A stretch of DNA of 64,000 bases. Origin: Thermoanaerobaculia bacterium (GTDB taxonomy: Bacteria; Acidobacteriota; Thermoanaerobaculia; Multivoradales; JAGPDF01). The DNA is taken from NCBI GenBank assembly GCA_018057705.1, contig JAGPDF010000016.1, positions 5,016-69,015 on the forward strand, read 5' to 3'. The notes beneath the pieces are model-generated. The model was not told the origin of the DNA, made no database searches, and was given only the letters and a program-made list of their open reading frames with translations. Positions 9,047 to 34,618 of the stretch are shown here, piece after piece. The translations under genes were made by a program, and so were the position numbers. Position 1 is the first letter of the stretch. Each line of letters opens with the position of its first letter.

Positions 9047-10060
9047 TCAGGGGAGCCCGATGGCGATCGTCGAGATCGGCACCGGCATGAAACAGAGCAG
9101 GAAGATCGCCAGCGCCGCGATCGCCAGCCACCGGCGACGTCGGCCCAATGGCTGCGCCTCGTCCACCACCGGCGGATGGCGCAGGCCCAGCCACAGGACG
9201 ATCGCCGCCCAGAGAAACCATCCCAGCCACAGGAAGCCGCCAGCGACGAGGATGGCGAAGAGGAACGGCGTCATGCGTTCCTGTCGACGTCCGGCGACGG
9301 CGTAGAGCAGGTGTCCACCGTCCAACTGCGCCAGCGGCAAGAGGTTCAGCATGGTCGCGAAACATCCGACCCAGGCGGCGAGGACGAAGGGATGGGGATT
9401 GAGGATCATGTCCCCCGGCAGGTCACCGTGGAACCACAGAACCAGGCCCCGGTACAGGAGGTTGTTGCCAGGCAACGTGAGTGCCATCGCCTCGGAGCTG
9501 GCAGAAAGCCGGATGATGCGTGTCGGGACGGAGTGCGCCACTCCGTAGACCAGGATCGGCACGAGGACGAGAAAGCCCGCGATCGGACCGGCCACGCCGA
9601 CATCGAACAGCTCGCGCTTGTTGCGGAGGGTGGTGCGGATCCGGATGAAGGCGCCGAAGGTGCCGATGAGGAAGGGCGATGGCAGGAAGTACGGCGGACT
9701 CACCGGCAGCCCGTATCTCCGGCAGGCGATGTAATGCCCGAGCTCGTGGGCGAGGAGGATGGCCATGACCGGCAGGGCGTAGGCCAGACCCCATCCGAGG
9801 AGCTTCGGATCGGTCCAGACACGCGCGATGGTGTCGGGCAGCAGGAAAGGCAGGAGATCCGTGATGATGTCGGTACGCGCGCCGAGGAGAAATACGCCGC
9901 CGGCGGTCACGCAGGTGAAGAAGGTGCAGACGAAGAGCAAGAGAGCCAGCTGAAACTGCCGTGCTTGTCCTCGAAGCGGTTTCCCTGCCGAGAGCTGCCG
10001 CCCCGGGGTCAGCGGTCCCGGGAGGAGAGACAGATCCGGCGGTGGAATGGAGTCCGGCAA
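9047..10060 (-). CDS. site-2 protease family (peptidase M50) membrane metalloprotease
   Basis: The HELGHY zinc motif sits inside a TM helix, with an LDGGH second motif and a polytopic membrane topology. Confidence 0.7.
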   Translation of the reverse strand: MPDSIPPPDLSLLPGPLTPGRQLSAGKPLRGQARQFQLALLLFVCTFFTCVTAGGVFLLGARTDIITDLLPFLLPDTIARVWTDPKLLGWGLAYALPVMAILLAHELGHYIACRRYGLPVSPPYFLPSPFLIGTFGAFIRIRTTLRNKRELFDVGVAGPIAGFLVLVPILVYGVAHSVPTRIIRLSASSEAMALTLPGNNLLYRGLVLWFHGDLPGDMILNPHPFVLAAWVGCFATMLNLLPLAQLDGGHLLYAVAGRRQERMTPFLFAILVAGGFLWLGWFLWAAIVLWLGLRHPPVVDEAQPLGRRRRWLAIAALAIFLLCFMPVPISTIAIGLP

Positions 10061-10427: not shown

Positions 10428-11936
10428 TCATGCCTTGCGCAGCTTCGATTGCATGATGCAGAGCTCGAAGGCGATCTCGGCCTTCGCGACGACACGCTGC
10501 AGATCGGAGAGGTCGCCGGCGGAGAGCTCGACTCCGGTCGTCGATCGCGGCTCGACGAGAAGCGCCGCGACGAGACGCTCCTTGACCTTGACCGGCAACA
10601 CCAGAACGTCCTTGCTGAGCGCCGGTGCCGCGAAACAAGCGGCCAGCAGGGCGTGCGCCGGCAGGGGCGAGAGCGGTCCGCGGAAGTAGGCGCCGGCCTC
10701 GCGCAGTCCCGCGAAGAGCGACGGCTGGGCGAGATCGAGACGCAGCGCTGCGAGTTTCCCCGCATCGATCCCCTCTCCTGACCCGAGCCAGCCGGCGATC
10801 TCCTGTCTGCGCACCACGAAGAGCACCGCGCGTGGCGTGACGCCGGCCGCGAAATCGAGGATGGCGCGCGCGACGTCGTCGCGTTCGCGGGTTTGCAGGA
10901 GGCGCTTCTCGGTCTCTTCGACCGTGAAGCGACGATGAGCGGCGGGCCGTGGCGGAGCCACAGGCGCCGCGGGAGCGACGGCAGCCGGCGATGCCGCCGG
11001 CGGTGGAGACGCGGCGATCGCAGGCGGTGGAGGAGCGGCAGCCGCGGCGGCGTTCTTCGGAGCCCGGGCCGGTTTCGCTGTCGCCGGCCGGGGGGGCGCA
11101 GGGGGTGGCGCTGGCGGCGCGGCGGTTGGCGATGGCGCCGGCGCCGGAGGCAACGCAGCAGGCGGCGGCGGGGGCGGTACGGCGGAGGGCGCGGGCGCCA
11201 TGGGGGCGAGCAGCGGCAGGTCGAGGGACTGGTGCTGGAACTGCGGCAGCTCGGGCGAGATCGGACCCGCACCGTCGGACCTTCCGGCGGGCTTGGCGGC
11301 CGATTTCCCGATGGCCGGGGCGGCAGCCGGGCCCGGGGGGACCTCCGCGGCGGCGTCGCCCGCGATCCGCGAATCCCACTGCAACTGGTCCCCAGACCGG
11401 CCGGCGGCTTCCTCCGATGCGACAGCCGAGGTGTCCCGCGCCCAGAGGAAGCGCGACCGGTTCATCTTGTCGAGCAGCTTCGCCATGCGTGCCGGGCACT
11501 CCTCGCCATGGTGCTTCTCGAGCGCTTCCATCAACCGGAGCTCGAGAGCCACGTACCAGCGAATCCGCTTGCCCACGACGAAGGAGATCTCGTCCTGGGC
11601 GGCCAGATCGCGGGCATCGATGAGCGCCACCTTCACCTGGGTCGAGCTGGCCTGGAAGGCGATGGCGTGACAGCGGCGGGCGACTTTGGACGGCAACAGC
11701 GCCAGGACGTCGTCGGGGATCCCCCGAAGTTCCTCCGGTGTCGCACACGGGGCGCCCTGCTGCTGCGCGAGGGCGCTGCAGAGCTCCTCTTCGCTCACCG
11801 CTTCGATCTCGAGCAGACAGGTTCCGAGACGCCCCCCGACGACCTTCTGATTGCGCAGCGCGCGCAGGAGCTGGTCCCGCGTGATCTGGCCACGCTGCTC
11901 GAGAAGCTCACCCAGGCGGAGTGCGGCAGTGCGCAA
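10428..11936 (-). CDS. MshEN (T2SS-E N-terminal) domain protein with Pro/Ala-rich linker and uncharacterized C-terminal domain; putative c-di-GMP receptor
   Basis: Residues 7-30 (RLGELLEQRGQITRDQLLRALRNQ) and 36-59 (RLGTCLLEIEAVSEEELCSALAQQ) match the tandem 24-residue MshEN c-di-GMP-binding motif. No AAA+ ATPase follows. The product is 502 aa. Confidence 0.6.
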   Translation of the reverse strand: MRTAALRLGELLEQRGQITRDQLLRALRNQKVVGGRLGTCLLEIEAVSEEELCSALAQQQGAPCATPEELRGIPDDVLALLPSKVARRCHAIAFQASSTQVKVALIDARDLAAQDEISFVVGKRIRWYVALELRLMEALEKHHGEECPARMAKLLDKMNRSRFLWARDTSAVASEEAAGRSGDQLQWDSRIAGDAAAEVPPGPAAAPAIGKSAAKPAGRSDGAGPISPELPQFQHQSLDLPLLAPMAPAPSAVPPPPPPAALPPAPAPSPTAAPPAPPPAPPRPATAKPARAPKNAAAAAAPPPPAIAASPPPAASPAAVAPAAPVAPPRPAAHRRFTVEETEKRLLQTRERDDVARAILDFAAGVTPRAVLFVVRRQEIAGWLGSGEGIDAGKLAALRLDLAQPSLFAGLREAGAYFRGPLSPLPAHALLAACFAAPALSKDVLVLPVKVKERLVAALLVEPRSTTGVELSAGDLSDLQRVVAKAEIAFELCIMQSKLRKA

Positions 11937-16077: not shown

Positions 16078-16152
16078 TGGGGCGTCGCCAAGCGGTAAGG
16101 CACGAGACTTTGGATCTCGCATTCGGAGGTTCGAATCCTCCCGCCCCAACCA
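16078..16152 (+). tRNA. tRNA-Gln (anticodon UUG)
   Basis: The sequence is TGGGGCGTCGCCAAGCGGTAAGGCACGAGACTTTGGATCTCGCATTCGGAGGTTCGAATCCTCCCGCCCCAACCA. It has a 7 bp acceptor stem, a GGTTCGAATCC T-arm, the anticodon loop CTTTGGA and an encoded CCA, and is near-identical in layout to E. coli tRNA-Gln. Confidence 0.85.
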
Positions 16153-29659: not shown

Positions 29660-30054
29660 GGTCGAAGAGCCCGGCGCGGTCGCTCCACGTTCGCGTGGAG
29701 AGGAAAGTCCGGACTCCAACGGGTGGCATGCTCGCCAACGGCGAGGCGCAGTGATGCGACGGAAAGTGCAACAGAAAACAGACCGCCCCGCCTTCGGGCG
29801 AGGTAAGGGTGAAACGGCGCGGTAAGAGCGCACCGCCCGGCCGGCGACGGTCCGGGGCAAGGCAAACCCCATGCGGAGCAAGACCAAATAGGGGGATGGC
29901 AGTGCGGGCCGCCCGTCCCGCCCGTTCCGGTTCGCCGGGACGACTTCCCCGGGTAGGTTGCTCGAGGCCGGCGGCAACGCCGGTCCCAGAGGAATGACCG
30001 TGACCGGCATCGCGAGATGACGGCACAGAACTCGGCTTATCGGGCTCTTCGACC
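29660..30054 (+). ncRNA. rnpB: RNase P RNA, bacterial type A
   Basis: P1 is formed by GGTCGAAGAGCCCG at 29660..29673 pairing with CGGGCTCTTCGACC at 30041..30054. The universal elements present are GGAAAGTCCGGACTCC, GGTAAGGGTGAAACGGCGCGGTAAGAGCGCACC and ACAGAACTCGGCTTATCGG, and the gene is about 395 nt. Confidence 0.8.
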
Positions 30055-30085
30055 CCTTTTCCGCCCACTCCCGCCCATCTCCGCC

Positions 30086-30997: not shown

Positions 30998-31813
30998 ATG
31001 GCGACCAGCAAGCCGGTCTTCAAGACCACGAGCAAGAAGCCGAACCTGCCGAACTACACCGTGGAGTTCGAGGCCGCCGAGTTCATCTTCAGCGAAGGCG
31101 ATCTCGGGATGGAGATGTACATCATTCACGAGGGCAAGATCGAGATCCTGAAGAGCATCCAGGGCGAGCAGCGCCAGCTCGCGGTGCTCGAGAAGGGCGA
31201 CTTCTTCGGCGAGATGGCGATTCTCGAAGATCTCCCGCGGACCGCTGCGGCGCGGGCCCTCACCGCCGTGAAGCTGCTGCTCATCAACGGCGCCACGTTC
31301 GACCAGATGCTGCGCACGAATCCGGAGATCGCGGTGCGGATGATGCGCAAGCTGTCGCGCCGCCTGCGCGACACCGACCATCTGCTGCGCGACTCGCCGG
31401 CGGCCGTCGCCGCGCTGGAACAGCCGACGCCGACCGTGGGCTCGGGCGCATTGCGCCTTCCGGGCAGCACCGAAACCGCGCCCGGCGTCGGTCCGCAGCG
31501 CCTCGTGCACGACAAGTCGGGGATGGAGTTCGCGCTCGCCAAGGGGGCCGAGACGATGATCGGCCGCCGCGACCCGGTGACCGGCATCGACCCCGACATC
31601 GACCTCACCCCCGCCGACACCCAGCGCTCGATCAGCCGCCGCCACGCCAAGATCTACCGCCGCGAAGGCAAGTTCTTCATCGCCGAAGAGATCGGCACCA
31701 TGAACGGCACCTTCGTCAACGGCACCCGCCTCGAAACCGGCGTCCCCACCGAAATCAAATTCGACGACGAAGTCCGCTGCGGCCTCGTCAACCTCAAGTT
31801 CAAAGCCGAGTAG
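30998..31813 (+). CDS. cyclic-nucleotide-binding domain + FHA domain protein
   Basis: The N-terminal cNMP-binding domain has FGEMAIL and a PRTAAARA phosphate-binding cassette. The C-terminal FHA domain contains GRRDPVTGIDPDIDLTP...SRRHAKIYRREGKFFIAEEIGTMNGTFVNGTRL. Confidence 0.7.
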   Translation: MATSKPVFKTTSKKPNLPNYTVEFEAAEFIFSEGDLGMEMYIIHEGKIEILKSIQGEQRQLAVLEKGDFFGEMAILEDLPRTAAARALTAVKLLLINGATFDQMLRTNPEIAVRMMRKLSRRLRDTDHLLRDSPAAVAALEQPTPTVGSGALRLPGSTETAPGVGPQRLVHDKSGMEFALAKGAETMIGRRDPVTGIDPDIDLTPADTQRSISRRHAKIYRREGKFFIAEEIGTMNGTFVNGTRLETGVPTEIKFDDEVRCGLVNLKFKAE

Positions 31814-31825
31814 CACAGCACCCCG

Positions 31826-32049
31826 CAGCTGGGGACATGTAGCTGCCTCAAGCGAAGGCTGCCCCGACCTGCGATCGCTACAGGGCGGATGCGTGTCCCC
31901 GGCGTACCTCTTCCGCCAGCTGGGGACATGTAGCTGCTCCAGCGAAGGTGCTCCCCGCAGCTGGGGACATGTAGCTGCCCCAAGCGAAGGCTGTCCCGAC
32001 CTGCGATCGCCGCAGGGCGGATACGTGTCCCCGGCGTACCTCTTCCGCC
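31826..32049. repeat. tandem direct repeat, 92 bp unit, about 2.4 copies
   Basis: Copy 1 spans 31826..31917, and copy 3 spans 31958..32049 with about 5 mismatches. A 40 bp partial copy lies between them at 31918..31957. Each unit starts CAGCTGGGGACATGTAGCTGC and ends GGCGTACCTCTTCCGCC. Confidence 0.75.
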
Positions 32050-32069
32050 TCGCCCGTGGTCGCGCTGCT

Positions 32070-32278
32070 CCGGCACTCGGGATCCAAGGCGGGCTCCTAT
32101 TTGAAGCGTGGTCGCCCACCTTGGATCCCGAGCGCCCTCGCGTCGCGGTGAGACGGGGTAGATGGGGACAATCCTCTTTTGTCCTTGCTGCTGTTCCGCC
32201 TGGGGCGCTCTGGCGCTCGGGATCTAGAGTGGGCGACCACGCCTCAAATAGGAGCCCGCTCTAGATCCCGAGTGCCGG
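32070..32278. repeat. long imperfect inverted repeat (two ~50 bp arms) flanking a ~110 bp core with a nested inner inverted repeat; MITE-like or structured-RNA element
   Basis: The left arm CCGGCACTCGGGATCCAAGGCGGGCTCCTATTTGAAGCGTGGTCGCCCAC (32070..32119) is the reverse complement of the right arm 32229..32278, with about 4 mismatches. The inner pair is TGGATCCCGAGCGCC (32121..) against GGCGCTCGGGATCTA (32211..). The motif TCGGGATC/GATCCCGA occurs four times. Confidence 0.65.
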
Positions 32279-32368
32279 AGTGCCCTACCACCGAAGCAAA
32301 ACTTGAGTCGCAGTGAGACGGACCGGACAGGACCCCGAGCGCACCGGAAGAAGAGAGCACGCAGAGGA

Positions 32369-34618
32369 ATGAAGCGCGATCGCGTTAAGCTCGCGTGCAG
32401 CGTGACGGCCGAAAACTCAACCCCGCGAGCCTCCGCTTCCGCTGTACCCATCCGCCTGGACACGCCGCTGCGGTTTCTCAAGGGGGTGGGGCCGGGGCGG
32501 GCGGAGAAGCTGGCGGGGGCGGGGCTCTCGACGGTGGAGGATCTGCTGCTGACGGTGCCGTTGCGGTATGAGGACCGGCGGCGGGTGGCGCGGGTGAAGG
32601 AGATCCAGGGGCCGGGGGCTTGGACGGTGGCGGGTCGGCTCGAGGATCTGCGGGCGATCCGGACGCGGCGGCGGGGGATGGTCATCGTGCGCGGGCGGCT
32701 GGTGGACGACTCGGGGGCGATTCCGGTCTCGTGGTTCAACCAGCCGTACCTTCTCACGCGCCTCCAGCAAGTTCCCGGCGCCACGTGGCTCCTCCACGGG
32801 GCGGTGAAGGGGGCCGACTGGGGGCTCTGGGAGATGACCAACCCGACCTGCGAGGCGGTCGATCCGGAGCAGACCGATCGTGCCGGGCGGATCGTCCCGA
32901 TCTACTCGAAGGTCGCGGGTCTCCCTTCCGGGCTCTTCGCGCGTCTTCTCGCGCAGGCGCTGCCGGCGCTCGACGCCGTCGTGGTCGCTTCCAAGCCCGA
33001 CGCCGCCCACGCTTCAAACAATGCCGGCGCCGCGGCCGGCGCTTCCCATGTCGCCGCCGCCCACCCTGCCAGCGCCGCGCTCGATCTGCTGCCGCCGGAA
33101 CTGCTGAAGCGCTACGCGCTGCCTTCGCTGCCGGTGGCGCTGCGGCAGTTGCATCGGCCGCCGGCGAACACCGATGTCGAGGCGCTGAACCGCGGAGAGA
33201 GTGGGGCGCACTCGCGGCTCGCTTATGGCGAGCTGCTCGAGTTTCAGCTCCAGCTGGCGCGGCGGCGGGCGGGCGAGGCCGCGATCGAGAAGCGGCATCG
33301 CTACCGCGTCGACGACGCGGTACGCGGCGCGGCGCGGGCCATGCTGCCGTTCGCGCTCACCGGGGCGCAGAAGCGGGTGGTGAAGGAGATCGTCGACGAT
33401 CTCAAGCGTCCGCAGGCGATGCTGCGGCTGTTGCAGGGCGACGTCGGCAGCGGGAAGACCATCGTCGCGGCGATCTGCCTGCTGCTCGCCTCCGAGAGCG
33501 GTCTGCAGGCGGCCTTCATGGCGCCGACCGAGCTCCTCGCCGAGCAGCATTTCGGCAACCTGCGGCGTTTGCTGGGCGGGCGCTGCCGAATCGAGCTGGT
33601 GAGCGCCTCCGGTTCGACGGCGGCGGTGAAGCGCGCCCTCGCCGATGGCTCGGTCCAGATCGCCGTCGGCACCCACGCGCTCATCCAGCGCGGTATCTCT
33701 TTTCACCGTCTCGGCCTCGCGATCATCGACGAGCAGCATCGCTTCGGCGTCGAGCAGCGGAAGGTCCTGCAGTCGAAGGGCGACCAGCCCGACATTCTCG
33801 TGATGACGGCGACGCCCATTCCGCGCACCCTCACGCTGACCCTGTACGGCGACCTCGACGTCTCGCAGATCGACGAGATGCCGCCCGGCCGCGGAACGCT
33901 CCTCACCGAGGTCCTTCCCGGTGGCGAGCGCAAGGAGGTCTACCGCCGCCTGCGCGCCGAGCTCGCCGCGGGGGCTCAAGGGTACGTCGTCTTCCCGCTG
34001 ATCGAAGAGAGTGAGGAGATCCCTGCGGCCTCTCTCGCGGCGCTCGGCGCGAAGGTGAGGGAGTACCTGGCCGACTTTCCGAGCGCCGTCCTGCATGGAA
34101 AGATCCCGGCGGTGGAGCGCGAGAGGATCATGCAGGAGTTCGCCGCCGGGAAGATCAAGGTGCTGGTCGCGACGACCGTCATCGAGGTCGGCGTCGACGT
34201 GCCCAACGCCACCTGGATGATCGTCGAGAGCGCCGAGCGCTTCGGCCTCGCCCAGCTCCACCAGCTGCGCGGCCGGGTCGGGCGGGGGAGCGGGGCGTCG
34301 CATTGCCTGGCGCTCCACGGCCGGCTCTCCGAAGAGGGGACGAAGCGGCTCGACGTCTTCGCCTCGACCCGTGACGGCTTCGCCATCGCCGAGGCCGACC
34401 TCCAGATCCGCGGCCCCGGCGACCTCCTCGGGACGCGCCAGGCCGGGCTGCCGCGCTTCCGCGTCGCCGACCTCGCGACCCACCTCGCCTGGATCGAGCG
34501 CGCCCGCCAGGACGCCCGCGAAATCGTGGCGCGCTTCGATGCCCCCGAGTATGGGCGACTGCGCGCCCGGGTGGAGGCGCGCGCGGCCCGGCTGGGCGAC
34601 CAGCTGGCGGGAGGCTGA
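32369..34618 (+). CDS. recG: ATP-dependent DNA helicase RecG
   Basis: The N-terminal wedge domain contains LRFLKGVGPGRAEKL, and the helicase core has the DEQHRFGV and MTATPIPRT motifs followed by the C-terminal TRG motif. The start was chosen at an internal ATG, 749 aa from the end. Confidence 0.9.
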   Translation: MKRDRVKLACSVTAENSTPRASASAVPIRLDTPLRFLKGVGPGRAEKLAGAGLSTVEDLLLTVPLRYEDRRRVARVKEIQGPGAWTVAGRLEDLRAIRTRRRGMVIVRGRLVDDSGAIPVSWFNQPYLLTRLQQVPGATWLLHGAVKGADWGLWEMTNPTCEAVDPEQTDRAGRIVPIYSKVAGLPSGLFARLLAQALPALDAVVVASKPDAAHASNNAGAAAGASHVAAAHPASAALDLLPPELLKRYALPSLPVALRQLHRPPANTDVEALNRGESGAHSRLAYGELLEFQLQLARRRAGEAAIEKRHRYRVDDAVRGAARAMLPFALTGAQKRVVKEIVDDLKRPQAMLRLLQGDVGSGKTIVAAICLLLASESGLQAAFMAPTELLAEQHFGNLRRLLGGRCRIELVSASGSTAAVKRALADGSVQIAVGTHALIQRGISFHRLGLAIIDEQHRFGVEQRKVLQSKGDQPDILVMTATPIPRTLTLTLYGDLDVSQIDEMPPGRGTLLTEVLPGGERKEVYRRLRAELAAGAQGYVVFPLIEESEEIPAASLAALGAKVREYLADFPSAVLHGKIPAVERERIMQEFAAGKIKVLVATTVIEVGVDVPNATWMIVESAERFGLAQLHQLRGRVGRGSGASHCLALHGRLSEEGTKRLDVFASTRDGFAIAEADLQIRGPGDLLGTRQAGLPRFRVADLATHLAWIERARQDAREIVARFDAPEYGRLRARVEARAARLGDQLAGG

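Follow-up and report, generated by a model that had tools for sequence, protein, structure and literature searches.

The 555-nt spacer (positions 31814-32368) between a gene for a protein with cNMP-binding and FHA domains (the FHA gene) and recG consists almost entirely of repeats, and most probably represents a place where members of two dispersed families of non-coding hairpin repeats, both specific to this lineage, have accumulated, in a mosaic resembling those of REP/BIME, ERIC and BOX elements. The two families are designated HP and U, and all positions given without a contig name refer to the whole 64,000-nt stretch of Thermoanaerobaculia DNA that was analyzed (the window). Because both families are scattered through the intergenic regions of this lineage, we regard the spacer as repeat DNA and not as a regulator specific to recG. 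The features of the locus are listed below, where R1 and R2 are the covariance models of HP and U, respectively.

30998..31813, + strand: gene with cNMP-binding and FHA domains, 5' of the spacer (Pfam cNMP_binding 8.6e-23, FHA 3.5e-12)
31822..31909, + strand: U copy 1 (R2 94.2 bits, E 4e-18; repeat family D1)
31918..31953, + strand: partial U of ~40 nt, head-only, i.e. left arm only (CAGCTGGGGACATGTAGCTGCTCCAGCGAAGG...; repeat family D2)
31954..32041, + strand: U copy 2 (R2 97.9 bits, E 6e-19), 94% identical to copy 1
32057..32150, + strand: HP copy A (R1 114.2 bits, E 1.7e-26; inverted repeat I3)
32151..32197, no strand assigned: inter-HP spacer of 47 nt, with a small hairpin GGACAATCCTCTTTTGTCC and a T-rich run
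32198..32290, - strand: HP copy B, opposite in orientation to copy A (R1 103.7 bits on the - strand)
32316..32342, + strand: M4-like module GACGGACCGGACAGGACCCCGAGCGCAC, standing alone; elsewhere the 3' outer-stem flank of C-type U
32369..34618, + strand: recG, 3' of the spacer and outside the repeats (Pfam RecG_wedge, DEAD, Helicase_C, RecG_dom3_C)

Gene calls and Pfam matches bore out the preliminary description of this DNA in placing a cNMP-FHA gene upstream and recG downstream of the spacer; the start of recG is that of the gene call in the identical contig L001. The FHA gene lies outside the repeats and was called in L001-L010, and we used it as the synteny anchor. Its protein is unchanged on contigs from wastewater metagenomes and MAGs, and its homologues are labelled Thermoanaerobaculia (Acidobacteriota) by their sources. 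An ORF running across the repeats (31893-32264) was considered as a small protein gene and rejected, with no match in Pfam. Elsewhere in the window, a bacterial RNase P RNA of class A (29663-30055, + strand; 276 bits, Rfam gathering threshold) occupies an apparent gap between a PatA_N/DnaJ/TPR gene and an LD-carboxypeptidase gene. Together with a tRNA at 16078-16149, it is the only match in the window that reaches the gathering threshold of Rfam.

The sequence observations made in the preliminary description are correct, and the architecture needs a different parse. Two near-identical direct repeats with a partial copy between them had been described, and we recovered them as 31818-31917 and 31950-32049 (94% identity over 100 nt, with a period of 132 nt), with a third copy of the 32-nt head between the two full copies at 31910-31941. 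The imperfect palindrome reported within each unit is also present. The inverted repeat described farther downstream is real, but its arms do not measure ~50 nt around a 110-nt core: the true arms (I1; 32068-32136 and 32212-32280) are 69 nt long, 90% complementary and 75 nt apart. Each I1 arm forms a hairpin in its own right, in which arms of 32-34 nt enclose a loop of 19 nt (I3, 32061-32094 and 32114-32147; I2, 32203-32234 and 32254-32285). The correct parse is therefore two opposed copies of a 94-nt palindrome, and the proposed single MITE of 209 bp, with terminal arms and a core, was a misparse of these two inverted copies. Contig L005, whose FHA gene and upstream flank are identical to those of the window, carries one HP copy only. 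The four CTCGGGATC / GATCCCGAG sites reported earlier were found again, one in each hairpin arm, and the same four are present in the identical region of L001.

HP copy A is a 94-nt near-perfect palindrome with a stem of ~30 bp and a conserved 19-nt loop, TCCTATTTGAAGCGTGGTC. The arms of copy B are 90% complementary to those of copy A (I1), and at three stem pairs both partners are changed relative to copy A. The complementarity of the HP hairpin is kept through compensatory changes: among 12 distinct copies, 98.3% of the stem cells were paired, and five pairs had two-sided changes (18 cells). The covariation score was reached by none of 500 shuffles, and the signal was abolished on sliding the 3' partner. 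The 19-nt loop TCCTAYTTGARGCGTGGTC is conserved across copies, and the arms (GCTCCGGCACTCGGGATCCAAGGCGGGC) contain no internal hairpin, as judged from both sequence and alignment. Beside the stem, copy B carries the tag GGTAG and other HP copies carry GTGG or GTCG, with a 5' GTAG or GTGG in some copies only. Modules made up of a small hairpin and a pyrimidine tract, comparable to the inter-HP spacer, come after HP at other loci.

U copy 1 is a hairpin of ~88 nt with the basal stem GGGGACATGTAGC...GATGCGTGTCCCC, and as RNA it reaches a minimum free energy of -47.0 (+ strand) or -37.0 (- strand). The basal stem of the family comprises 20 pairs and is almost invariant, with G-U pairs at fixed positions, a G-A mismatch that is likewise fixed, and a single covarying pair. 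The ends of U, GGGGACA...TGTCCCC, are invariant across copies, and the interior of ~37 nt is unrelated between copies; the distance spanned by this bracket is nevertheless fixed, at 70-72 nt in U1 and at 66 nt in all three distinct copies of the U2 family. In the window, the U1 brackets lie at 31831-31900 and 31963-32032, and the same pattern was observed in L013, L103-L110 and L137. U also contains an invariant GTAG, located 9 nt inside the stem and immediately before the inner stem CYGCCCC. Modules M2 and M4 lie on either side of the C-type U, and the consensus fold predicts that they form an outer stem. The window keeps only an isolated copy of M4, the module that pairs with an upstream module in that fold. 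The sequence GGGCCGGTCAGGACCCCGAGC is found 3' of U in L013, L103, L104, L107, L108 and L137.

The orthologous spacer in L013, another Thermoanaerobaculia MAG, contains a U, a single HP and a diverged U, in this order. The FHA genes of the window and L013 are 87% identical and diverge by 25% at fourfold sites, whereas HP and its flanks show few differences in ~110 positions. When the U elements of this site were compared, the ends were identical and the central 23 nt were 35% identical. Given this pattern, the ends have been constrained or homogenised and the center has been replaced. One possibility is that the center was replaced by conversion between dispersed copies via their identical ends.

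We also searched for further copies of both elements, as the preliminary description had proposed. Exact searches, searches with mismatches and the covariance models R1 and R2 found no second copies of HP or U in the 64-kb window. In contigs of related Thermoanaerobaculia, on the other hand, HP and U were found at no fewer than 10 unrelated intergenic sites, usually side by side, as members of dispersed repeat families. A scan of metagenomes for U identified copies among unrelated genes in L103, L104, L106, L107, L108 and L110. Three of these contigs (L104, L106 and L108) share a source metagenome, from which L105, a variant of the FHA/recG locus, was also recovered. HP adjoins U in L104, L106, L108 and L110, and a further HP lies elsewhere in L104 and in L110. 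Contig L137 (21 kb of a 339-kb contig) was reached through a concatenated six-frame peptide query of HP and U, for which P0121 was the sole protein returned. It contains five HP copies, each in its own intergenic region; four of them are accompanied by U or by a weaker hairpin resembling U, and the fifth site has a U remnant only. Where HP and U stand side by side, they are co-oriented everywhere except at copy B of the window. The orientation of the elements relative to the flanking genes was uninformative at ~11 loci, with the sense strand used in three of four co-directional gene pairs.

A scan of genome contigs with the 16-mer GGGGACATGTAGCTGC returned 88 stretches, all of which, apart from L013, were chance or coding-sequence matches; those in Planctomycetota lay inside a conserved gene and were discarded. 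Contig L109, which carries a short U-like hairpin and three head-only repeats, was left out of the family. No match to the repeats was found in phages, plasmids (BLAST) or viral contigs, and viral scans with the U head and the HP arm showed nothing of wider similarity.

Several other observations were made on these contigs. P0121 is a 407-aa gene call (L137 10001-11224) whose 3' end enters U and HP repeats, and because of this at least its 3' part is probably spurious. Left-arm-only partial copies stand in tandem just before a full hairpin in the window (31918-31953, U), in L141 (10826-10930, HP), in L104, in L137 (17150-17185) and, with an unrelated short hairpin of another organism, in L109 (532-608). 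This stacking suggests a common mechanism of slippage or template switching at the hairpin bases. Further repeat families were also seen, namely three tandem copies of TCTGCAAGTCGACNGCTGTCGACTTGCTCGG in L110 (about 1500-1620), two copies of GCTGCTTGCCCCTTCTGAGGGGCTCG after the FHA gene in L100/L101, a palindrome with arms GAAATCGGTGACAGTTTCCTGATTTC in L106 (about 1790-1890) and L099 (4455-4482, there inside a U head), and a 52-nt nested hairpin GGGGACACACAAATGGGACACACAA...TTGTGTGTCCCC in L110 (2655-2706) and L138 (4973-5024).

A mobile miniature repeat had been one of four candidates in the preliminary description. The dispersal of both units agrees with it; its MITE form was not supported, and no target-site duplication was found at the HP or U copies. 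Classical MITEs, i.e. deletion derivatives of an insertion sequence with a DDE transposase, terminal inverted repeats and target-site duplications, would be in keeping with the size of 70-94 nt, the inverted ends, the intergenic dispersal and the presence or absence of elements between strains. However, the flanks of eight HP and 10 U copies contain no direct duplication, and the conserved sequence beyond their stems is asymmetric. Moreover, the entire HP is a hairpin and does not consist of terminal repeats around a core, a parent insertion sequence with the same ends was not seen in ~240 kb of related sequence, and the only nearby transposase is of the Y1/HUH type, which uses neither terminal inverted repeats nor target-site duplications. 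We consider an origin as classical MITEs very improbable.

Another candidate was a multi-hairpin attenuator or terminator specific to this locus, that is, a regulatory region of recG. This reading is in line with the position of the spacer between co-directional genes and with one weak terminator-like hairpin at about 32164-32186. That hairpin is the sole terminator-like match, and one match against 0.5 expected is at chance level. Our scan of the spacer found no T-run 3' of HP or U and no promoter-like site, so that neither element has the form of an intrinsic terminator or attenuator, in which a G+C-rich hairpin is followed by a T-run. A search of the spacer against Rfam 15 returned no known structured RNA family, and solely microRNA-precursor models well under their gathering scores, which is the generic noise of long hairpins. 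In addition, the same elements are present at many other loci, and in L142 recG abuts the FHA gene without any spacer. A neutral or chance origin was also considered. The whole spacer folded far more stably than its shuffles on both strands (z = -13.4 for the + strand, -10.2 for the - strand), in agreement with the earlier claim of strong structure, and diagnostic 19-25-mers of the spacer were counted two to three times in the window, where shuffles give an expectation of 0.00-0.01 (the 19-mer GCTGGGGACATGTAGCTGC, three times against 0.01). These shuffle controls exclude the chance reading. The dispersal data largely refute both the recG regulator and the chance sequence, and together we regard them as scarcely credible.

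The main rival to repeat DNA is a host function at the RNA level. HP and U would then be functional structured RNAs or cis-acting RNA modules, spread or retained because of their use to the host, that would here control how strongly the FHA gene and recG are expressed. They could act as stabilisers in 3' UTRs, as RNase III sites, as terminators or insulators, or as a composite non-coding RNA of ~130-400 nt. Such a role is suggested by the fold of the spacer (z = -13.4), the covarying stems and conserved 19-nt loop of HP, and the outer stem formed by M2 and M4 around U. The strand asymmetry is also consistent: folded as RNA, eight of 10 U copies are more stable on the + strand, and all eight HP copies are more stable on the strand opposing the orientation that HP usually has next to U. 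Furthermore, at the orthologous site HP has changed far less than fourfold sites have, and a hairpin of the HP family lies directly 5' of recG in three species (window, L013 and L141). However, the flanking genes of the elements are unrelated, and the elements lie upstream, downstream and antisense to their neighbors (e.g. L137 19955). Both orientations of HP occur at the window locus, whole copies have been removed by indels between strains, and HP and U prefer opposite strands despite their co-orientation. The lack of an Rfam match, a promoter-like site or a T-run after the hairpins also speaks against this role, and compensatory changes are equally expected for single-stranded DNA hairpins or for templated repair in palindromes. 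We therefore judge an RNA-level function of this kind to be unlikely.

The FHA-recG junction differs among relatives. In the more distant L142 (FHA protein 73% identical) the spacer is absent, and in L141 (78%) it is 209 nt long and contains a diverged HP, in which the basal stem is the same and the apex and loop differ; two partial copies made up of the left arm alone come before it. Three other genes are inserted at the junction in L143, a giant gene is located there in L102, and L100 and L101 carry a different hairpin repeat. The junction has thus been a permissive site that has accepted insertions repeatedly. Among strain contigs, the flank shows at most one difference in 1316 nt, yet the structure of the spacer differs. 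Exactly 140 bp is missing from L005, between equivalent points of HP copies A and B, which leaves a single chimeric HP. The partial U at 31918..31953 (41 nt) is missing from L008, whose FHA gene and upstream flank are identical to those of the window, and 3 bp is missing from L003. L007, which was seen in two assemblies, lacks HP, and the tail that follows U is a different one. Metagenome contigs of relatives often end inside or just after the repeats (L099, L100, L101, L010 and L008), because repeats break short-read assemblies in this way. Given that copy number and arrangement vary between species and strains, the window arrangement is a derived one that arose by insertion; U was then duplicated locally in tandem, with a period of 132 nt, and HP was duplicated in inverted orientation. 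No clean pair of empty and filled sites, and no transposition event, was seen among the compared contigs.

Contigs L137 and L138 encode P0122, a 224-aa Y1_Tnp (Pfam) protein whose best NCBIfam match is 'REP-associated tyrosine transposase' (NF047646; 69 bits against a curated cut-off of 80), compared with 35 bits for the IS200 model. In L138, this gene has perfect 23-bp palindromes, AAATTGGGGACWGTCCCCAATTT, on both sides (9816-9890 and 10747-10770). In L140, a homologue with 96% identity likewise lies between two such palindromes; in L139, one was seen downstream. These short palindromes (GGGGACWGTCCCC) have the form AAATTGGGGAC(A/T)GTCCCCAATTT, and one of this kind is located 13 nt upstream of U in L013. 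The two halves of their core, GGGGACA and TGTCCCC, are the exact outer ends of U1, of U2 and of two more hairpin families, so that the hairpin families U1-U4 have a common GGGGACA...TGTCCCC bracket. Only the core is common to the flanking palindromes and U; the palindromes have no sequence relation to HP and no GTAG/CGTC tag. The heptamer GGGGACA/TGTCCCC is over-represented three to four times in L137 and L138, with no such excess in the window, and neither a RAYT gene nor the short GGGGACWGTCCCC palindrome was found in the 64-kb window. In a REP-RAYT system, the RAYT gene is bordered by its cognate repeats. The RAYT-like gene and its flanking palindromes probably constitute such a system in Thermoanaerobaculia.

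In L141, L142 and L143 (about 20.8 kb each), the heptamer was observed 0-1 times against ~5 expected from mononucleotide shuffles, which are a crude control. This scarcity may reflect avoidance in relatives without U families. An IS200/IS605 end pair was rejected, as the two hairpins are unrelated to each other. CRISPR, retron, integron attC and uptake sequences were also considered and rejected; nothing was found in favor of the uptake site that the preliminary description had listed.

With regard to mechanism, we infer that the elements persist because their single-stranded hairpins would be recognized by a trans-acting factor. For U, this factor would most likely be a RAYT-type Y1 (HUH) transposase, because in a relative such a gene is flanked by palindromes that have the U-end core. 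HP may hitch-hike or use another factor. Effects on neighboring genes would be a by-product, for example a partial insulation of the transcription of recG from that of the FHA gene, or protection of the 3' end of the upstream mRNA. The interspecies conservation of HP, its invariant loop and its co-orientation with U could instead mean a host function. A joint reading would combine these elements: U1-U4 and the RAYT-flanking palindromes would form a long-lived, vertically inherited REPIN-like population in Acidobacteriota, in which only the GGGGACA/TGTCCCC stem base would be recognized and the length-constrained interior would be actively swapped or diversified. HP would be the co-oriented partner with a 19-nt loop recognized by a protein, and the two would make up a composite device of single-stranded DNA or RNA with a host function. 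We offer this as a speculation with rather long odds against it. To our knowledge, no REPIN-like replicator population has been described in Acidobacteriota.

These results have several implications. The long, structured spacer beside a DNA-repair gene is accounted for as repeat DNA and not as a dedicated regulator, and recognizing it as such prevents mis-annotation. Gene callers yield spurious ORFs over these repeats (e.g. P0121), which contaminate protein databases, and metagenome assemblies break at them. For an uncultured Acidobacteriota lineage of wastewater, the analysis adds two previously undescribed families of palindromic repeats and, probably, a REP-RAYT system. The unusual features of the two families, i.e. 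invariant ends around unrelated interiors of fixed length in U and a conserved loop on a covarying stem in HP, could be used in studies of recognition and maintenance. The fixed-length, unrelated interiors of U and the conserved loop of HP are most worth following up.

Comparison with known systems shows partial likeness to several of them. Integron attC sites are recognized as folded single strands and have the core sites R''/R' (RYYYAAC / GTTRRRY). U resembles them in architecture only, through its conserved inverted ends, a center of variable sequence and fixed length, and fixed mismatch and wobble positions; its ends are GGGGACA and TGTCCCC, no integrase or cassette organization is present, the elements lie dispersed among ordinary genes, and the neighbors in the window are housekeeping genes. 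The ERIC/IRU elements of Enterobacteriaceae are imperfect palindromes of about 127 bp with no target-site duplication and no known dedicated transposase. HP and U are similarly intergenic imperfect palindromes of ~100 nt that occur in either orientation and show high interspecies conservation. They differ from ERIC in that sequence and phylum are unrelated, the HP stem is much more perfect, and HP is regularly paired with U. BOX elements of Streptococcus pneumoniae and the Correia (NEMIS) elements of Neisseria can influence how stable the transcripts of adjoining genes are or where they terminate, and they resemble the present repeats as modular mosaics with a variable number of modules, strong structure and a location adjacent to genes. 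Terminal inverted repeats and a duplicated TA target characterise the Correia elements, and none was seen here; the BOX modules are unrelated in sequence.

REP elements are defined as palindromic units of 20-40 bp with a stem of 5-13 bp and a loop of 2-20 nt (PMC3733652, Table 1), and a REPIN consists of two inverted REP hairpins that together make one long hairpin. The present units are larger, at 70-94 nt with stems of ~20-30 bp: HP measures 94 nt with 30 pairs, and U measures 88 nt with a 20-pair basal stem and an interior of ~37 nt. They also differ from REPs in that the U interiors are unrelated between copies and the density in the window is low. Instead of a GTAG/CGTC tag at one end, there is no consistent terminal tag, as the GTAG of U is internal and the HP copies are mixed. 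The arms of HP are not REP hairpins, so that HP is not a REPIN. REPs are typically present as many scattered, largely intergenic copies in one genome, frequently in inverted dimers and clusters. As regards copy number, we found at least 10 distinct loci in relatives, five HP sites in the 21 kb of L137 and one cluster in the 64-kb window. REP-RAYT systems include dimers, clusters, mosaic associations and REPs nested in other palindromes (Di Nocera et al. 2013, PMC3733652). Because HP and U depart from the strict definitions of REP, REPIN and MITE in size, tag and target-site duplication, we file them as small dispersed intergenic palindromic repeats. Like the REP/BIME sequences of Enterobacteria, Pseudomonas and others, they are intergenic hairpins that occur as singletons, as inverted dimers (HP-A/HP-B with a 47-nt spacer), as head-to-tail arrays (U-U) and as mosaic clusters with linker modules, in an arrangement that varies between strains. 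Elements nested inside other palindromes are found here as in some REP families (PMC3733652), and the single RAYT-like Y1 gene of a relative, with a flanking palindrome core equal to the U ends, recalls the REPIN-RAYT systems.
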